From: Methanocellales archaeon | GTDB lineage: Archaea > Halobacteriota > JAWCLZ01 | DNA length: 64,000 nucleotides | Assembly: GCA_038850275.1 (NCBI GenBank) | Contig: JAWCLZ010000006.1 | Coordinates: 393-64,392, forward strand | Direction of reading: 5' to 3' | Shown: positions 1-8,364 of the stretch, piece by piece | How the letters are laid out: each line of letters starts with the position of its first letter | Numbering within the stretch: position 1 is the first letter of the stretch | The notes under the pieces: generated by a model | The model's database searches: none | What the model was told of the DNA's origin: nothing | Seen by the model: the letters and a program-made list of their open reading frames with translations, nothing else | Program-made: the position numbers and the translations under genes

Positions 1-728
1 ATGAATGCAATGTGCTTAGGATGCTTGCCATCCTGCCTCAAAATAGTTCCCTCAGTTGGCCCAGCTGCGTTGAGAAGCCGCTCATATTCCAGGCCTGTTA
101 ATACATTTTCCAACACCCCATAGCCATAATTGCGCAGCACCGAGGGATCATACATGTCAAATCCAGTGGCCACGATTATAGCCCCCACATTTAACTCCAC
201 TATCTCATCCTGCATTGCGAAATTAATTGCCATGCGGTCTCCGCATGCTTCCACGCATTTGAAGCATTTGATGCAGTGCTTCGTATCAATAGTATATACA
301 TTTGGCACCGCTTGTGGAAATGGTACATATATTGCCTTTCGCGATTTGGTATTAGCATCATATTCATTGGGCACTTCCACTGGACACGCTTGAGCACACT
401 CACCGCAACCAGTGCATTTGGCTTTATCAACATATCGAGATTTCTTAATTACCTCGACCTTAAAATCCCCGAGTTTGCCTTTAACCCGCTTCACCTCAGC
501 ATAGCTCAGCAATTCTATATTGGGATGCCTCGCGACCTCAACCATCCTCGGTGCTTCAATGCACATTGAGCAATCTAGCGTGGGCATGGTTTTATCAAGC
601 TGAGCCATTCTCCCGCCTATGCTGGGGAGCTTCTCAACTAAATAAACTTTATAGCCGATGTCCGCTAGATCTAAAGAGGCAACCATTCCAGCGATGCCTC
701 CGCCTATAACTAATACCGATCCCCTCAT
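1..728 (-). CDS. hdrA: Heterodisulfide reductase HdrA-like flavoprotein, lacking the N-terminal Fe-S domain; runs off the window start
   Basis: Manual translation from ATG at 728 gives MRGSVLVIGGGIAGMVASLDLADIGYKVYLVEK...LDKTMPTLDCSMCIE...CTGCGECAQACP...CIKCFKCVEAC...GLEYERLL. ATGA overlap with the upstream gene. Not in the ORF track because its stop lies outside the window. Confidence 0.93.
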   Translation of the reverse strand, partial: MRGSVLVIGGGIAGMVASLDLADIGYKVYLVEKLPSIGGRMAQLDKTMPTLDCSMCIEAPRMVEVARHPNIELLSYAEVKRVKGKLGDFKVEVIKKSRYVDKAKCTGCGECAQACPVEVPNEYDANTKSRKAIYVPFPQAVPNVYTIDTKHCIKCFKCVEACGDRMAINFAMQDEIVELNVGAIIVATGFDMYDPSVLRNYGYGVLENVLTGLEYERLLNAAGPTEGTILRQDGKHPKHIAF

Positions 729-1867
729 TTCATCTGCCTCCCTACTAGTGTAACTATATCTTTAACTTTGATATTATGCTGCACTGGTATTTTTTGCTCC
801 TCGCAGATTGAACAAGAGAAATGAATCAAGCAATGGGGGCAAGCAGTAACCAATGTTTGCGCGCCTGTTTCTCTCGCTTCCTTCAAGCGCTGCTCCCTAT
901 ATACCTTGGTCTCAGGCTCGCAGCTAAGCCAAGCACTTATGCCGCAGCATCCGGCTTTTTCCCTTATGTTCTTCATCTCCACAAATTTACCAAGCCTCTC
1001 CATTATAATCCTGGGAGTATCATAAACCCCGCAGTGCCTGCCAAGGCGACATGGATCTTGATAAGTGAGTACTTCGCTAGATCTAGCGACCTCGATTTTA
1101 CCGCTATTTATGCCCTCTATTATGACCTCAGTTATATGTTTAACTTTTATGTCAAAGCCTTTTATTACCCTTGGGTAATCTAGAAGGAAAGTTCGATAGC
1201 ATTCCGGGCAAAATGTGATTATCTCTTTAACTCCACGTTCCTTGAATACCTTTGTATTTGCATTTGCAAATTCCACGAAAGTTTTATAATCACCAGCCCA
1301 GAATACATCGTGCCCGCAGCACCTTTCATCCGCGAAGATTTGATAGTTTATATTCAACTTGTCCAAGATTTTGACACTGCTTCTCACCATTTCCTTTGCA
1401 TCGAAGTTCAAATCCATGAAGAACATCTCATAGAGGGGGATGCAGCTCACGAAAAAAAGCTTGTCCCCTTTTTTATTCAAATCAATTCCTGTTTCCTCAA
1501 ACCACTTTGTTCTATCAAGAGCCTTGGCTCTCGCCATTATCCTATGCATAGAATGAAAGATGCCCTTATGGGCATAGGGTATATCAACTGCTTGAGTTCT
1601 AGCGCTTCTAACCACTTCTTGGATATTTATACCCTGGGGGCATAGCACTGTGCACTGGCCACAGGTTAAGCAATACCAGAGATATGGGAGTACTAAGTCT
1701 TTTAAGCCATAGTTAATCATCCCCATCATAACATGGGGCTTGAACTCATACTTAGTTTCCCTAGCAACTGGGCAAACTGCAGTGCATTCAGCACATTTAA
1801 AGCACATCTTTGCTTGATCCCCGCCTGGTATTGCGGAGATCTTTTTAATAAATTCCCTAGAGATCAA
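725..1867 (-). CDS. HdrD/GlpC-like Fe-S oxidoreductase (2x[4Fe-4S] plus two CCG domains)
   Basis: CFKCAECTAVCP and CLTCGQCTVLCP motifs; CCG domains ERCCGH...CPEC and DPCRLGR...GCCG...ACPHC. Confidence 0.88.
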   Translation of the reverse strand: MISREFIKKISAIPGGDQAKMCFKCAECTAVCPVARETKYEFKPHVMMGMINYGLKDLVLPYLWYCLTCGQCTVLCPQGINIQEVVRSARTQAVDIPYAHKGIFHSMHRIMARAKALDRTKWFEETGIDLNKKGDKLFFVSCIPLYEMFFMDLNFDAKEMVRSSVKILDKLNINYQIFADERCCGHDVFWAGDYKTFVEFANANTKVFKERGVKEIITFCPECYRTFLLDYPRVIKGFDIKVKHITEVIIEGINSGKIEVARSSEVLTYQDPCRLGRHCGVYDTPRIIMERLGKFVEMKNIREKAGCCGISAWLSCEPETKVYREQRLKEARETGAQTLVTACPHCLIHFSCSICEEQKIPVQHNIKVKDIVTLVGRQMK

Positions 1868-1869
1868 TG

Positions 1870-2337
1870 CTAAACACCCTTTATAGCGCTAAGTGCGGAT
1901 TGAATCTTCTGCGCAAGCTCTTCCTCATTAACATAATCAATTGCTTTAGTCGGGCAGAATTCCAAGCAAACTGGCTTGCCCTCGCATAGATCGCAGGCAA
2001 ATGCTTTCTTTCTGTCAAGATGCATGGACATGGCTCCATATTCACAAGCCTCAACGCACCATCCGCAGCCATCGCATTTATCCTCATCTATTTTTATAAC
2101 CAAAGTTTTTTCATCCTGAGTAATTGCTCTTCTAGGGCACTTCAGCAAGCAGGGTGCTGGTTTGCAAAATCTACATGCTTGAGCGCTTGTCAGCGGAGGT
2201 ATGCTAACTGCTTTAATTCGCGCCTTTTTGGGATTGAAAACATTTTCCTTTTTATAGGAGCAGATAAGCTCGCAAGTGTGGCAGCCAATGCAAAGTGCTG
2301 GATCTGCAGCTAAAAATTTAGTCCCCATAATTATCAC
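1870..2337 (-). CDS. Four-cluster 4Fe-4S ferredoxin (DmsB/HydN type, often AOR-associated)
   Basis: CIGCHTCELIC, CRFCKPAPCLLKCP, CDGCGWCVEAC and CDLCEGKPVCLEFCP motifs. Confidence 0.9.
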   Translation of the reverse strand: MIIMGTKFLAADPALCIGCHTCELICSYKKENVFNPKKARIKAVSIPPLTSAQACRFCKPAPCLLKCPRRAITQDEKTLVIKIDEDKCDGCGWCVEACEYGAMSMHLDRKKAFACDLCEGKPVCLEFCPTKAIDYVNEEELAQKIQSALSAIKGV

Positions 2338-3392
2338 CTTTCCACGGGCAGCGTTTCCCCAGTTACAAGTTTATATAGCTTTGCCAGCTCTATTTCATCG
2401 TAGGGTGCGCGCTTGCATATGATTAGAGAATTGAGTAATTTATCAAGCTTCCCAACCAATGGTTTCACTGATTTTACACCAGCTACTTTTTCCACCCTCT
2501 CCGCTTCTGACTTAACTGCGAGGCTCTTTATAAATTCATTGAGTTTCTTAGCTTTCACTGCTTTTGCGAGAGCACCAGTATAAATCGGATTAAGTCCAAG
2601 TCGCTTGCATAAAGCAATTGCTTCCACAACTTCTTCTGCTTTATAGCCGTTGAATGCTTCAGCCTCCTCTGGAAATATAGCTGTCATCACTCCATTTGCT
2701 TGGAATACCTCTCGGCATGCAATATTGCATTGATAGCAAGAGCGATTCTTCGGGAGTTTTTTGGCAATTAAATCTTTTCTAATTTTACTCGGCACTTCTT
2801 TCTTTAAAATAGCCTTTATCAATTCATCTGGATGGGCTACTTTAACATCCTTCGATCCCCTAACAATAACTGCTTTCAAAAGTTTAGCACCCATGGCATA
2901 GCCAAGTCCACTTGCATCAAGCTGGTCATCGCAGTAGATGCTTGCAAATTTAACCTGATGCTCCCCCGCTGGACCTATAACTGCTACCCCAATTGTTGAA
3001 TCATTGGCATCCTTCAAAATCTGCTCAACTGTCTCACAGCAATCAAGACCCCAGAGTTTATCCGCGCGCTCGATATCCACGCCATCATCATCTATCCAAA
3101 GGGCAACTGGTCTCTCAGCTCTACCGCTAATTACAATGGCATCTAAGCCCACTAGCCTCATTTGTATACCAAAATTCCCAGGGAAGTAATCCTCTCCATT
3201 TATAGAGAAAACACCTACCACGCTTCCCGCAGGTACCAAGGTTCCTGAGAAAACTCCTGTTGCAAATATCAATGAATCTGGCTTCAATAATTTCGATGCC
3301 AATGCAGCGCCACCTATTCCTTCGATTTTCTCCACTTTTATACTTAAGCTATTCTTGGTCAAATTAGCATAGAGCACCTTTTTTTCAATCAT
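2334..3392 (-). CDS. Shortened, divergent aldehyde:ferredoxin oxidoreductase (AOR/WOR)-family protein
   Basis: AOR N-domain signatures GLDAIVISGRAERPV, LWGLD, IGPAGE, GLGYAMGAKLLKAV and CYQCNIAC. About 350 aa versus about 600 aa for typical AORs. ATG at 3392 preferred over the ORF-track start at 3419. Confidence 0.8.
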   Translation of the reverse strand: MIEKKVLYANLTKNSLSIKVEKIEGIGGAALASKLLKPDSLIFATGVFSGTLVPAGSVVGVFSINGEDYFPGNFGIQMRLVGLDAIVISGRAERPVALWIDDDGVDIERADKLWGLDCCETVEQILKDANDSTIGVAVIGPAGEHQVKFASIYCDDQLDASGLGYAMGAKLLKAVIVRGSKDVKVAHPDELIKAILKKEVPSKIRKDLIAKKLPKNRSCYQCNIACREVFQANGVMTAIFPEEAEAFNGYKAEEVVEAIALCKRLGLNPIYTGALAKAVKAKKLNEFIKSLAVKSEAERVEKVAGVKSVKPLVGKLDKLLNSLIICKRAPYDEIELAKLYKLVTGETLPVER

Positions 3393-3559
3393 CAATGAAC
3401 GCTCCCAAGTTTTTATCAATTAACCACAACACTTATACAATTTTCTCTTTGAATCGATTTATTCCTAGCTTAATTAAGGCTTGCTATTTGAAAAAAATCA
3501 ATCAATTTATATGCATGTATATCAAGATCAATGGCTAATCAATAGATTCTGGTGTTGGC

Positions 3560-4600
3560 ATGAGAGGAAAGCCCATTAGACTCGTTAAAGACGAGCAGCA
3601 AATAATTAAGCGAAAGATGTATTTCCGCTCGCATGAGGTAATTCATAATTTACTTAAATGTCAGGGCTGCGAGATATGTAAAACTTCCTGTCCAGAAGAG
3701 GCAATTAGTATCAGTGGCGCGGAGATCAAGGATGGAAAACTGATTAAGAAAAATAAAGCAGTTTTCGATGAAAATAAATGCACCTTCTGCGGTGTTTGCT
3801 CCCAGGTTTGCCCATATCACGCGATTGAATTCAAAATTGACGGCAAGCCCTCTCCACCTGTGCTGCAGGAGGATTTCCCTAAGCTTATTCGAGAAGTCTA
3901 TATAAATCAAGAGAAATGCGATCCCCGCTGCACCCTTTGCCAAGAGACATGCAAATTCGAAGCCTTGAAGTATGAAGATGGAAAAGGTGAAATTGAAATT
4001 TTAGATGTACAAATTAATGATGAACTCTGCAATTTATGCCGAAAATGCGAAGCTCCAGGCGTAGAAATCGCAGATAAAGTTTACATAAACTATGATAAAT
4101 TCACCGATGAAACCCTAAAAGCTCTGGAAAAATGCCCAGAAGGCGCGATTTCGATCAATAAAGAGAAGCGAAAAGAAAGGCTGATTAAAGTAGATCTAGA
4201 CAAATGCGTTACCTGCGGTTGGTGCGAAGGTGTTTGTCCAAATGGTGTGCTTGCGGTTACCACGCCTTTCGAAGGCACCTTAAGCATAGACACAGCTAAG
4301 TGCCCAGAGGCTTGCATAGTTTGCATGGAAGCATGTCCCTGCGGCGCACTACATGGTTCTCCCTTGGTTTATCGAACTGAATACTGCATATTATGTGGCG
4401 CGTGTAAAAATGCATGCCCAAATGGCGCTATTGCGATAACTAGAGAAAGAATTCGGCATACTAAAGCACACTCAGGCACTTGGTTTAGAGCTTTAAGCAA
4501 TTTAACAAGCACTAGAGCTTATGCCAAGGAATTGCAAGCAGAAGGCTATAATAGAACGATAAATACATTATTAAAAATAAGGGGTAGTGGTGGTAAGTGA
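3560..4600 (+). CDS. fwdF: Polyferredoxin, FwdF-like
   Basis: Multiple CxxCxxCxxxCP motifs over 346 aa; the terminal regions and overall layout resemble FwdF. Confidence 0.75.
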   Translation: MRGKPIRLVKDEQQIIKRKMYFRSHEVIHNLLKCQGCEICKTSCPEEAISISGAEIKDGKLIKKNKAVFDENKCTFCGVCSQVCPYHAIEFKIDGKPSPPVLQEDFPKLIREVYINQEKCDPRCTLCQETCKFEALKYEDGKGEIEILDVQINDELCNLCRKCEAPGVEIADKVYINYDKFTDETLKALEKCPEGAISINKEKRKERLIKVDLDKCVTCGWCEGVCPNGVLAVTTPFEGTLSIDTAKCPEACIVCMEACPCGALHGSPLVYRTEYCILCGACKNACPNGAIAITRERIRHTKAHSGTWFRALSNLTSTRAYAKELQAEGYNRTINTLLKIRGSGGK

Positions 4601-7359
4601 CTGAAGTTAAAGCTGAGGCTGAGGCTAAGGCTAAGGGGAAGGAAAAGGAAAAAGTCGCCGGCATTGGGCCAGGTGGCATAGAGATCACTGAACCTAGAAT
4701 AGGGGTATTCCCCTGCTACTGCGGCTCCAATATAGCTGGCACAGTTGATGTGGAAGCAGTCGCTGCCTATGCAAGAACCCTCCCAGATGTAGTATGGGTT
4801 CAGACCAATAAATATACTTGTGCGGATGTTGGTCAAGCGGAGATTCGAAATGCAATCAAGCAGCATAACTTGAATCGCGTGGTAGTAGCATCTTGCTCGC
4901 CTAGAATGCATGAGCCAACATTTAGGAGATGCGTCCAAGATGCAGGATTGAATCCATTTCTCTTTGAAATGGCAAATATTAGAGAATTCTGCTCCTGGAT
5001 TCACTATGCCAATAAAGAGGAGGCAACTGAGAAGGCGAAGGATTACGTTAGAATGGCAGTTGCAAAGGCAAGGTATCTTCAACCCCTAGAGCCATTCTAT
5101 GTACCAATCACCAAGAAAGCACTCGTTATAGGAGGGGGAGTCGCAGGTATACACGCTGCACTTGACATCGCGGATCACGGTTTTAAGGTGTACTTGGTGG
5201 AGAAGGAACCATCAATTGGCGGCAGAATGGCTCAGTTGGATAAAACCTTCCCAACCCTAGATTGCTCCATCTGCATAGAAGGACCTAAAATGGTCGAAGT
5301 GGGGCGGCACCCTAACATTGAATTGCTGGCTTATTCTGAGGTTAAAAAAGTCAGCGGCTTCATAGGCAACTTCAAAGTACAGGTGCTTAAAAAAGCCAAA
5401 TATGTAAGGAAAGAAAAATGCACCGGCTGCGGTGACTGCGCAAAAGCTTGCCCAGTGGAAGTGCCCAATGAATATGATGTAAACCTCGGCCCGAGGAAAG
5501 CCATATATATACCTCTACCGCAGGCTGTTCCAAATACCTATACCATTGACTTGAAGCACTGCATCAAGTGCTTCAAATGCGTGGAAGCATGCGGAGACCG
5601 CATGGCAATTGACTTCACCATGCAGGATGAAATCATTGAGCTCGAGGTTGGCACAATCGTGGTTGCCACTGGCTATTCGATGTGGGATGCCACTCAGAAA
5701 AAAGAATATGGCTATGGTAGATATGAAAATGTCCTTACCTCGCTTGAGCTCGAGCGATTGATCTGCGCTTCAGGACCGCTTGAGGGGCATGTGGTTAGAG
5801 CTTCAGATGGAAAAGAGCCCAAGAAAGTGGCATTCATAACCTGCGTTGGAAGCAGGGAAATGGATCCCAAGGGCATAGCCAAGCCATATTGCAGTAACTT
5901 CTGCTGCATGTTCACCTTAAAACTAGCAAATCTCTGGAAAGACCACTGGCCGGATGCTGAAATATATATAATTTATATGGATATGAGAACCATCTTCAAG
6001 GGCTTCGAGGACTTCTATATCAAAGCACGTGATCAAGGTATAACCTTCATTCGAGGAAGGCCTTCTGAGATAATCGAGCTTCCAAATAAGAACTTGTTAA
6101 TAAAGGTATTTGATACTTTCATAAATCAGCCCGTGGAACTAGAAGTTGAAATGGTTGTGCTAGCGGAGGCAAGCGTTCCTAATCCCGATTCAAAAGAGCT
6201 CGCTGCCATCTTAAATGTACCTACGGATGAGCATGGATTCTTCATAGAATCACATCCTAAGTTAAAGCCAATTGACTTTGCCACAGATGGAATATTCTTA
6301 GCTGGCTGCTGCCAGGGCTTGAAAGATATTCCCTATAGCGTGTCGCAAGCTCATGGTGCTGCATCTAGGGCAACAAGAGTTATGTCTCAAGATAAATGGA
6401 AGATCGATCCCATAGTCGCAGTTGTCGACGATAAACTCTGCATAGGCTGCGGTATGTGCGTTGAGAGATGTGCATATAAAGCAATATCCCTAATAGAAGT
6501 CCCAGGGAGGGAGAAAAAGCTCGCGAAGATCAATCCAGCTCAATGCCACGGCTGTGGCACTTGCGTGGCTGATTGTCCCAGCAATGCAATGCAGCAAATG
6601 CACTTTACTGATGCTCAAATCATGGCTCAAATTAGAGAAGCAACTGCTCGCAATCCAGAGCAAATTATAGTTGCTATGATCTGCAACTGGTGTACTTATG
6701 GCGCAGCTGACTTAGCAGGGGTAAGTAGAATTCAACAGCCTACTTCTGCTAGGGTAATAAGGGTAATGTGCTCAGGGAGAGTTGATAGAGACTTCATTTA
6801 TGAAGCCTTCAGGCGAGGAGCTGGGGCTTTCTTCATGGGTGGGTGTGAAATTGGCACTTGTCACTATGTATCAGGGAACAAGATCTCAGGGCCTAGGTTC
6901 GACAAGGTCAAAGAGGAGTTGGTGAAGCAAGGCTTAACACCTGAGAGAATGCAGAGGCGTTGGATCTCAGCTGCAATGAGCACTGTCTATGCTAATACCA
7001 TTAAAGAACTAGATAGGGTTATAAAGGAACTAGGCGTGGAGAGGATTAGAGCTGAGAATGAAAAATTAAGGCCATATCTAGAGAAGAGACTTGGACTCGT
7101 GCCCAAAGAAGTGCCTCCGCCGGTTGAAAAATTCTTCCCAGCTAAGGGCATCATTGAATCGCTGGAGAAACTGGGACTAGCCCTTGAAATTTCAGATGGC
7201 AAGCTAAAGATCGTGCCGCTTGCAGAGGCAAAAGCTAAGTATGATCGAGATCAAGTTCCAATGAAGGAATTCCTAGCGCTTTTAAAACCAGCTGGACTTG
7301 GTATTACCAAAAAACCTGATGGCACAGTTGAAGTTGTAAAACTAGCTGTGAAGAAATAA
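4597..7359 (+). CDS. hdrA: HdrA-MvhD fusion with an extra C-terminal domain
   Basis: CYCGSNIAG N-domain, GGGVAG FAD motif, LDKTFPTLDCSICI, CVGSR...YCSNFCC and a C-terminal ferredoxin, followed by MvhD motifs CNWCTYGAAD, RVMCSGRV and GCEIGTCHY. Confidence 0.93.
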   Translation: MTEVKAEAEAKAKGKEKEKVAGIGPGGIEITEPRIGVFPCYCGSNIAGTVDVEAVAAYARTLPDVVWVQTNKYTCADVGQAEIRNAIKQHNLNRVVVASCSPRMHEPTFRRCVQDAGLNPFLFEMANIREFCSWIHYANKEEATEKAKDYVRMAVAKARYLQPLEPFYVPITKKALVIGGGVAGIHAALDIADHGFKVYLVEKEPSIGGRMAQLDKTFPTLDCSICIEGPKMVEVGRHPNIELLAYSEVKKVSGFIGNFKVQVLKKAKYVRKEKCTGCGDCAKACPVEVPNEYDVNLGPRKAIYIPLPQAVPNTYTIDLKHCIKCFKCVEACGDRMAIDFTMQDEIIELEVGTIVVATGYSMWDATQKKEYGYGRYENVLTSLELERLICASGPLEGHVVRASDGKEPKKVAFITCVGSREMDPKGIAKPYCSNFCCMFTLKLANLWKDHWPDAEIYIIYMDMRTIFKGFEDFYIKARDQGITFIRGRPSEIIELPNKNLLIKVFDTFINQPVELEVEMVVLAEASVPNPDSKELAAILNVPTDEHGFFIESHPKLKPIDFATDGIFLAGCCQGLKDIPYSVSQAHGAASRATRVMSQDKWKIDPIVAVVDDKLCIGCGMCVERCAYKAISLIEVPGREKKLAKINPAQCHGCGTCVADCPSNAMQQMHFTDAQIMAQIREATARNPEQIIVAMICNWCTYGAADLAGVSRIQQPTSARVIRVMCSGRVDRDFIYEAFRRGAGAFFMGGCEIGTCHYVSGNKISGPRFDKVKEELVKQGLTPERMQRRWISAAMSTVYANTIKELDRVIKELGVERIRAENEKLRPYLEKRLGLVPKEVPPPVEKFFPAKGIIESLEKLGLALEISDGKLKIVPLAEAKAKYDRDQVPMKEFLALLKPAGLGITKKPDGTVEVVKLAVKK

Positions 7360-7387: not shown

Positions 7388-8364
<977 letters not shown>

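Follow-up and report, generated by a model that had tools for sequence, protein, structure and literature searches.

The locus analyzed here is best read against the class II benzoyl-CoA reductase (Bam) of Geobacter metallireducens, the tungsten-containing aldehyde ferredoxin oxidoreductases (AORs), and the heterodisulfide reductase (Hdr) flavoproteins of the HdrA2 type that are encoded together with a polyferredoxin. It lies at the beginning of a 64,000-nt stretch of a Methanocellales archaeon genome (GenBank assembly GCA_038850275.1, contig JAWCLZ010000006.1, positions 393 to 64,392; hereafter the window) and consists of two divergent operons, one of which is headed by the gene for a short AOR-like protein (mini-AOR). 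The Bam complex, Bam[(BC)2DEFGHI]2, was compared by way of the BamBC crystal structure (4Z3W) and a cryo-EM preprint (bioRxiv 10.64898/2026.04.10.717634). As described in that preprint, BamE is a fused HdrA dimer in which the N-terminal thioredoxin reductase-like (TrxR) domain carries the bifurcating FAD and the pair Cys59-Cys62, while the second TrxR domain is structural; BamF is an MvhD adaptor, BamD is an HdrD-like high-potential exit towards electron-transferring flavoprotein (ETF), and Bam(BC)2 is the low-potential exit, with its terminus at the tungsten site. The same text reports that the distal cluster of BamD is found disrupted in the majority of BamD's homologues.

On balance, we lean towards the interpretation that the two operons form a conserved unit in which a Bam-type Hdr bifurcating core is combined with a non-catalytic AOR relic, and in which a polyferredoxin (polyFd) wires this core to an HdrA-MvhD flavoprotein. 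An earlier note on this DNA had described six tightly coupled genes around a spacer of about 170 bp, and the six open reading frames (ORFs) do lie at these places, four on the minus strand (left arm) and two on the plus strand (right arm), with adjacent genes in each arm overlapping by 4 nt or separated by 2 nt. Pfam and NCBIfam bear out the domain calls made there, and with the same profiles, no hydrogenase, formate dehydrogenase, HdrBC, or catalytic Fwd genes were found adjoining the locus, as the note had also stated. The features are as follows.

3-728, minus strand: left HdrA, BamE-like, the 5' portion of a gene for a fused double HdrA that runs off the window
725-1867, minus strand: HdrD-like (BamD-like) iron-sulfur protein, 380 aa
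1870-2337, minus strand: four-cluster ferredoxin of the BamC / AorA / HydN type, 155 aa
2334-3392, minus strand: mini-AOR, AOR-like protein, 352 aa from the ATG at 3392 (an alternative TTG start gives 2334-3419, 361 aa)
3393-3559: spacer of 167 nt, the divergent promoter region common to both arms
3560-4600, plus strand: FwdF-like polyferredoxin (polyFd), 346 aa
4597-7359, plus strand: right HdrA, an HdrA2-type HdrA-MvhD fusion, 920 aa

For mini-AOR the 352-aa start was chosen, this being the length of all database relatives. Downstream of the right arm, a gene for nicotinamide mononucleotide adenylyltransferase begins at 7427 (Pfam, NCBIfam).

The window starts 392 nt inside contig C6 of the assembly (G000; 1.52 Mb in 48 contigs, 92% complete), and the contig start truncates the left HdrA gene, of which 373 aa are present on the contig. 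Elsewhere in this assembly, nothing matched the missing part better than 46% (contig C41, queried with the C-terminal 498 aa of the protein from a relative, G002), and a local tblastn of the remainder against the other Hdr loci gave no more than 55%; the rest of the gene was therefore not assembled. Three relatives were used for comparison, two from the same genus (G001 and G002) and one from another genus of the same family (G003), the four family genomes being 92-100% complete. The visible 373 aa are 94.6% identical to residues 1-373 of the 987-aa G002 protein, and in all three relatives the complete gene encodes a fused double HdrA of 987-989 aa, followed by a separate 139-aa MvhD gene and then by unrelated genes. 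Reading to the left of the window, as the earlier note had advised, thus ends at the contig start, and it is the relatives that add the rest of the fused HdrA and MvhD.

The visible part of the left HdrA begins with the FAD domain (HdrA2 profile positions 141-380, E 3.4e-103, NCBIfam) and comprises a first TrxR domain with a CxxC pair and an inserted two-cluster ferredoxin domain. When the full-length fused protein was mapped onto the canonical HdrA2 of the right arm, residues 6-411 corresponded to this first TrxR domain (TrxR1) with its inserted ferredoxin domain, residues 416-668 to the HdrA N-domain, which carries a cluster, and the start of the second TrxR domain (TrxR2), and residues 673-984 to the remainder of TrxR2, without an inserted ferredoxin, and a two-cluster ferredoxin domain at the C-terminus. 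Only the first FAD domain contains the CxxC pair (Cys53, Cys56), the cysteines fit seven clusters, and the best matches in the Protein Data Bank are methanogen HdrA chains. Given this domain map and the single CxxC, the fused HdrA is a self-contained, asymmetric HdrA pseudo-dimer in one chain. The description of the left protein as an HdrA lacking its N-domain thus holds for the visible part, but in the full gene of the relatives the N-domain stands in the middle of the protein. The idea of two unequal HdrA subunits in one HdrA dimer is not supported, as the left protein is a pseudo-dimer with its own MvhD and the right one a complete HdrA-MvhD.

Other fused HdrA genes were also observed in this family. 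A second type, of 1128-1131 aa and 46% identical to the left-arm type, is encoded with an MvhD gene at G000:C41:1752-5138 (L029). A third, of 978-985 aa and 40% identity, is found on G001:C34 and G002:C20, where it adjoins a weak FrhB-like match and may belong to an F420-linked Hdr cluster.

The left arm reproduces the gene order of bamBCDEF, that is, AOR-family protein, ferredoxin, HdrD-like protein, fused double HdrA, and MvhD, in three of three relatives, the present genome being assembled only to 373 aa of the fourth gene. As in Bam, the fused HdrA starts with a CxxC-bearing TrxR domain and holds cysteines for seven clusters, and MvhD is a separate gene. Several features differ: mini-AOR is 352 aa long compared to 653 aa for BamB and has lost pterin-site residues, the ferredoxin carries four cluster motifs as opposed to the three clusters of BamC, the HdrD-like protein has both of its CCG motifs intact, MvhD is of ordinary length (139 aa) while BamF is extended, and a divergent operon for polyferredoxin and HdrA is attached. 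Taken together, the layout fits the preprint's description of the Bam core point by point, with a counterpart of the catalytic BamB that looks degenerate. The link to Bam drawn in the earlier note is therefore stronger than had been claimed with respect to gene order, but a role of the AOR-like protein as a tungsten-pterin subunit is not supported, the residues that surround the pterin being deleted or replaced. Fused HdrA proteins are also known from anaerobic methanotrophic archaea (ANME) as HdrA3/HdrA4, and tandem HdrA genes with MvhD occur in clusters of this phylum; these share the organization of an approximately 1000-aa chain that forms its own asymmetric dimer and is followed by MvhD. 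However, in HdrA3/HdrA4 (Chadwick et al. 2022, PMC9012536) the N-domain lies in the N-terminal half, whereas the present protein resembles BamE in having no N-domain in its first half.

No NuoF-like protein (Pfam PF01512) indicative of a BamGHI-like input was found in any of the four family genomes, although one is present in the Candidatus Methanolliviera genome used as a control, and ETF (Pfam PF01012) was likewise absent from all four but gave three matches in Methanolliviera (G039). Acyl-CoA dehydrogenase was not found in the four family genomes either.

The remaining left-arm proteins retain their iron-sulfur ligands. The ferredoxin has 16 cysteines in four cluster motifs, 10 of them invariant and 6 conserved in at least 90% of 73 sequences; it is matched by Pfam Fer4_11 and other models, and its best NCBIfam matches are HydN and the N-termini of AegA/YgfT/PadI. 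The HdrD-like protein combines two cubane [4Fe-4S] motifs with two CCG domains (Pfam CCG, 86.6 bits over two stretches, plus Fer4_8), and all 8 + 10 cysteines and both CCG motifs are intact in seven of seven sequences, four from this family and three from Methanoliparia. Its score against the NCBIfam HdrB model is only 32.5 compared to a cut-off of 345, so that a heterodisulfide substrate is not implied.

The most unusual component of the locus is mini-AOR. Its residues 14-188 match the AOR N-terminal domain AFOR_N (Pfam PF02730) with 127.7 bits against a cut-off of 29.8, while the match to AFOR_C (Pfam PF01314) is confined to profile positions 52-135 of 385 (29.4 bits), and complete AOR domains 2 and 3 are not present. 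The AlphaFold2 model is nevertheless confident (pLDDT 91.1, pTM 0.91), and all 352 residues superpose on PfAOR (1aor_A 1-522; Z 33.8, rmsd 2.0 Å), with a Z-score of 30.3 against BamB (4Z3W). Compared with tungsten AORs of known structure (PfAOR 1AOR, WOR5 6X1O, AorABC 8C0Z, and the bifurcating WOR 9MQX), the protein shares the large-subunit fold (Z 29-34), the [4Fe-4S] site, and an adjacent gene for a small subunit with four clusters, but domains 2 and 3 are largely deleted, with 252 residues of a 594-aa AOR lacking a counterpart, and the partners are HdrA, HdrD, and MvhD proteins instead of NuoEFG-like or FAD subunits.

To follow individual residues, we used an alignment of 96 sequences (6 mini forms, 3 Methanoliparia forms, and 87 full-length AORs) in PfAOR numbering. 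Cys288, Cys291, Cys295, and Cys494, the [4Fe-4S] ligands of PfAOR, are conserved in all 6 mini forms and all 87 full-length AORs. The surroundings of the pterin have fared differently. Arg186 is invariant in the 87 full-length proteins and replaced in 6/6 mini forms, Asp343 is equally invariant but is Asn in four of the six, and Arg76, present in 74/87, is Val in the mini forms; Arg186 and Asp343 count among the residues around the tungstopyranopterin. Thr243, Tyr427, and His448 are deleted in all six mini forms. In a 2026 review (PMC13328260), these three and Glu313 are given as conserved tungstopyranopterin-coordinating residues. With the tungstopterin pocket gone, mini-AOR would not be catalytic for substrate chemistry. 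These comparisons indicate that it is probably a tungsten-free relic with a retained iron-sulfur site that does not convert a substrate, and we predict that it serves as a wiring or docking piece.

The gene is under purifying selection, with a ratio of nonsynonymous to synonymous substitution rates (dN/dS) of 0.15-0.16 against the two congeners, compared to 0.03-0.11 for the other genes of the locus, and it is the least conserved of them, with 72% identity between genera versus 79-88%. A search of 5.8 billion proteins returned, among the best 7999 candidates by common words, five clusters of relatives, all 352 aa long and 71-100% identical, followed by full-length AORs at roughly 30%. Of the 41 genomes from the phylum that were compared, only the four of this family contained the short form. 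Two ideas about its origin were considered and set aside. The gene is not one half of a split AOR, as every PF01314 match in the four genomes is either a frame of 531-618 aa or mini-AOR itself. Nor does BamB appear to be its specific ancestor, as the N-domain resembles PfAOR (E 3.1e-33) more than BamB (1.5e-19) in sequence, and the relic therefore cannot be called a BamB orthologue. A separate observation concerns a metagenome-assembled genome of the Actinomycetota, where the similarity of a 346-aa open frame (L146 9713-10753) to AORs is limited to their N-terminal part (38.6% over 228 residues); this could be a further short AOR or else a broken gene.

The same cluster was also found in a second lineage. 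Outside the family, the closest relatives of the fused HdrA, at 55-57% identity, belong by their database names to Ca. Methanolliviera and Ca. Methanoliparum, and these Methanoliparia encode all five genes in identical order, in three complete loci and in others that are cut by contig ends. Their clusters carry no annotation beyond AOR and HdrA. Their AOR-like protein, 521-549 aa in length, has decayed otherwise than mini-AOR: Cys288 is Phe and Cys494 is Tyr or His in three of three sequences, and Arg76, Arg186 (2/3), Glu313, and Tyr427 are replaced. The public annotation of the Methanolliviera protein as "tungsten-containing aldehyde ferredoxin oxidoreductase" is, judging from these residues, probably wrong. 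As its cluster ligands are lost, a role in electron relay fails in Methanoliparia, and any role common to both lineages is only structural; it can only be to hold or cap the ferredoxin, or to offer a docking face. The Methanoliparia protein family is narrow, with five clusters before identity falls to 36% or less. In a FastTree phylogeny of 99 AORs, the mini-AOR and Methanoliparia groups are sisters with an SH-like support of 97, although the program flags the joining of two long branches at this point; the loss of Arg76 and Arg186, a 2-residue deletion, and the gene order that both relic groups have in common agree with the tree.

The Methanoliparia clusters differ in the divergent arm, where the HdrA is only 420 aa long and consists of the FAD domain and inserted ferredoxin, without N-domain, C-terminal ferredoxin domain, or MvhD, and in the organism, which has Mcr, ETF, and acyl-CoA dehydrogenases. 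At one Methanolliviera locus (G039:C19; L027 9372-12158), the cluster comes after genes for acyl-CoA dehydrogenase, enoyl-CoA hydratase, and 3-hydroxyacyl-CoA dehydrogenase that have the same orientation, a neighborhood that hints at a link to beta-oxidation. Methanolliviera also has a second cluster (L065, G049:C21, 2655-12014) with a full-length 614-aa AOR, a four-cluster ferredoxin, and a 989-aa fused HdrA, along with an MvhD of 245 aa, a GltD/NfnB-like flavoprotein of 789 aa, and, on the opposite strand, a polyferredoxin-like gene of 215 aa.

Whether the two arms belong together was addressed by synteny and by modeling. A divergent arm encoding polyFd and HdrA stands beside the AOR-like gene in all four loci of the family and in three of the four assessable Methanoliparia loci (G049:C5, G029:C10, and G019:C96), the exception being G039:C19; a fifth Methanoliparia locus begins at a contig end and was left out of the count, giving 7/8 assessable loci in total. 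As a background, we used 80 ordinary AOR loci from many phyla, the matches listed by a contig scan with generic patterns from the AOR-like alignment; neither this family nor Methanoliparia is among them. None of the 80 listed has a polyferredoxin- or HdrA-like neighbor within 10 kb, and 22 of them have a four-cluster ferredoxin neighbor. Conversely, 13 fused- or tandem-HdrA loci belonging to 7 further families of the phylum showed neither an AOR-like gene nor one for a four-cluster ferredoxin in the stretch fetched.

The spacer between the arms is also conserved. Its identity to the three relatives is 94%, 86%, and 80.5%, the last for the other genus (140 of 174 columns), and the mean column identity in the alignment of the four genomes is 89%; synonymous sites of the flanking genes are saturated against the other genus (pS 0.75-0.78). 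TATA-like boxes are present in both directions, and the motif ATCAAT occurs six times between 3391 and 3543 (153 nt), always on the plus strand, compared to 84 occurrences on both strands of the 64 kb. The three relatives retain these repeats in part, and an operator function is conceivable.

A three-chain model of mini-AOR, ferredoxin, and polyFd, with polyFd as the scored partner, gave 0.90, 0.88, and 0.88, while in the controls the score fell to 0.00 and 0.00 when the partner was replaced and to 0.62 when mini-AOR was; the mark applied to this score is reached by 58/80 solved complexes and 2/110 mismatched pairs. At least 83% of the contacts were common to the runs, with a partner pLDDT of at least 81. 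In the model, polyFd uses its last cluster domain and C-terminal tail (residues 223-240, 273-310, and 318-341) to touch the ferredoxin at residues 42-53, 91-110, and 142-149 and mini-AOR at residues 94-112, 128-133, and 178-180. These models support binding, with the polyferredoxin predicted to dock on the ferredoxin/mini-AOR pair. Solved complexes of an AOR with a ferredoxin exist, and none is known to include a polyferredoxin of this kind. With respect to the checks proposed in the earlier note, the divergent pairing is seen in both lineages, and an interface between the arms is predicted (0.88 compared to 0.62 for the best control). The proposal of a single assembly gains support from synteny, spacer conservation, and the complex model, but this support is partial, and we infer joint assembly from the model and from synteny. 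In a metatranscriptome run (X5, word share 0.09), contigs fell on the HdrD-like gene, mini-AOR, polyFd, and HdrA2; most are less than 90% alike and therefore come from relatives. Contigs from an RNA library are no proof of transcription or co-expression, and gaps in their coverage are uninformative.

Of the right-arm proteins, polyFd has about 7-8 cluster motifs and a conserved C-terminal helical tail. Its best NCBIfam match is FwdF (NF042909), at 164 bits compared to a cut-off of 375, and it is 28% identical to a named FwdF; its nearest relatives outside the family are those of Methanoliparia (42-45%), after which identity drops to 36% or less. The right HdrA scores 1069.2 bits against NCBIfam HdrA2 (NF040770), slightly under the cut-off of 1100, with residues 34-815 covering profile positions 1-774 of 777 and an MvhD (Pfam FlpD) domain at residues 691-813. 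A polyferredoxin gene followed by an HdrA-MvhD fusion is also found in Methanosarcina acetivorans, in the pair MA2867 and MA2868, which was compared by description; the "HdrA14" of Chadwick et al. 2022 is of this kind. The present arm differs in its score under the cut-off, in its divergent pairing with a Bam-type operon, and in an additional C-terminal tail. This tail of about 100 aa (residues ~820-920, window 7050-7359) has no Pfam or NCBIfam match and contains two similar short motifs.

If the arms do function together, a route for the electrons can be proposed by analogy with Bam, although the direction of flow (bifurcation or confurcation) and the identities of the electron donor and the high-potential acceptor are our conjecture. 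The fused double HdrA would carry the bifurcating FAD, with the MvhD adaptor on the input side. One electron would leave through the TrxR cluster to the HdrD-like subunit, a high-potential and probably disulfide-reducing exit, as the two intact CCG sites suggest disulfide reduction by this subunit. The low-potential electron would pass from the N-domain cluster to the inserted ferredoxin domain and on to the four-cluster ferredoxin, from which the chain would end at the lone cluster of the relic, in place of the tungsten of Bam, and, according to the model, at the polyferredoxin and then HdrA2. The relic would thereby take the place of BamB as an iron-sulfur or docking subunit, and polyFd would wire the low-potential branch to the HdrA-MvhD flavoprotein. 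A bolder version, which we regard as speculative and rather unlikely, is a two-stage bifurcation in which the BamE-like module and HdrA2 operate in series through a polyferredoxin seated on a fossil subunit, sorting electrons among disulfide, ferredoxin, and a third carrier without any substrate-converting metal, and which in Methanoliparia would link beta-oxidation to methanogenesis.

Several observations weigh against a joint unit of this kind, and some of them favor another arrangement in which two independent complexes have only the promoter region in common, polyFd and HdrA2 working with HdrB and HdrC encoded elsewhere, as proposed for the Methanosarcina HdrA2B2C2. HdrB genes above the curated NCBIfam cut-off do exist in the family and, in the present genome, lie on contigs C22 and C4, and HdrA2 with a polyferredoxin is described without an AOR cluster in ANME and Methanosarcina by Chadwick et al. 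(PMC9012536). At G039:C19, the divergent arm is missing and beta-oxidation genes stand where it would be. With regard to the model, the control in which mini-AOR was replaced still reached 0.62, so that most of the contact is ferredoxin on ferredoxin and may be generic, and the job, with three chains and custom alignments, was unlike the calibration. The likeness to Bam, for its part, rests on gene order, domain layout, cysteines, and the preprint text, and no electron donor module was found, the four genomes lacking a NuoF-like protein and the present one showing only an N-terminal fragment match to a [NiFe] large subunit. Against separate complexes stand the pairing of the arms in 7/8 loci from two distant lineages, which has persisted despite a change in the type of HdrA (920-aa HdrA-MvhD versus 420-aa HdrA), the occurrence of the closest outside relatives of polyFd only in the Methanoliparia loci, and a complex model above its mark. 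Considering both sides, we regard two independent complexes as a genuine but minority possibility.

The nature of mini-AOR can also be questioned from two directions. A reduced or different cofactor site, for instance with one pterin or completed by a neighboring subunit, might still allow low-potential substrate chemistry like that of BamB; the gene heads the operon in the position of bamB, is under purifying selection, and retains the [4Fe-4S] site by which the active site of AORs is supplied, and Glu313 is perhaps retained, appearing as E in one alignment and as A in another, an ambiguity that counts against the relic interpretation. However, domains 2 and 3 have lost about 250 residues, Arg186 and Asp343 are replaced, and Thr243, Tyr427, and His448 are deleted, and the loss of cluster cysteines in the Methanoliparia counterpart, although it also counts against a conserved relay, fits a relaxed catalytic constraint in this branch; we therefore consider retained catalysis improbable. 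At the other extreme, mini-AOR could be a functionless, decaying remnant in an otherwise ordinary cluster of Hdr paralogues, and its standing as the least conserved gene of the locus would agree with this. Yet an intact 352-aa frame recurs in 5 database clusters and 4 genomes, its dN/dS is low, the predicted fold is confident (pLDDT 91), the four cluster cysteines are kept in 6/6 forms, and the gene is translationally coupled to the next, which together make a functionless remnant very improbable indeed. We thus return to a Bam-related, non-standard Hdr system that is conserved and whose two arms are probably joint.

Regarding the organism, an uncultured archaeon of hot springs, 58-86% of the sampled words of the locus were found in four DNA runs of one hot-spring study. 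Neither McrA nor McrB was found in any of the four family genomes, while both were found in the Methanolliviera control. We found no account of a cluster combining an AOR relic with Hdr proteins in the literature searched, where the supplementary tables of Laso-Perez et al., Chadwick et al., and the Bam preprint may list the genes.

The Bam core (BamCDEF), solved in 2026, is emerging as a reusable electron-splitting module, and the locus offers a prediction that is open to test, namely one complex, free of tungsten, with the polyferredoxin attached. The question extends to Ca. Methanoliparum and Methanolliviera, which turn oil alkanes into methane and for which enrichment cultures are described in the literature. 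If the interpretation is true, the module has been kept while its tungsten enzyme decayed, to an iron-sulfur relic in this family and to a cluster-less shell in Methanoliparia, which would clearly exemplify how a catalytic subunit can be kept on as a scaffold or a wire.

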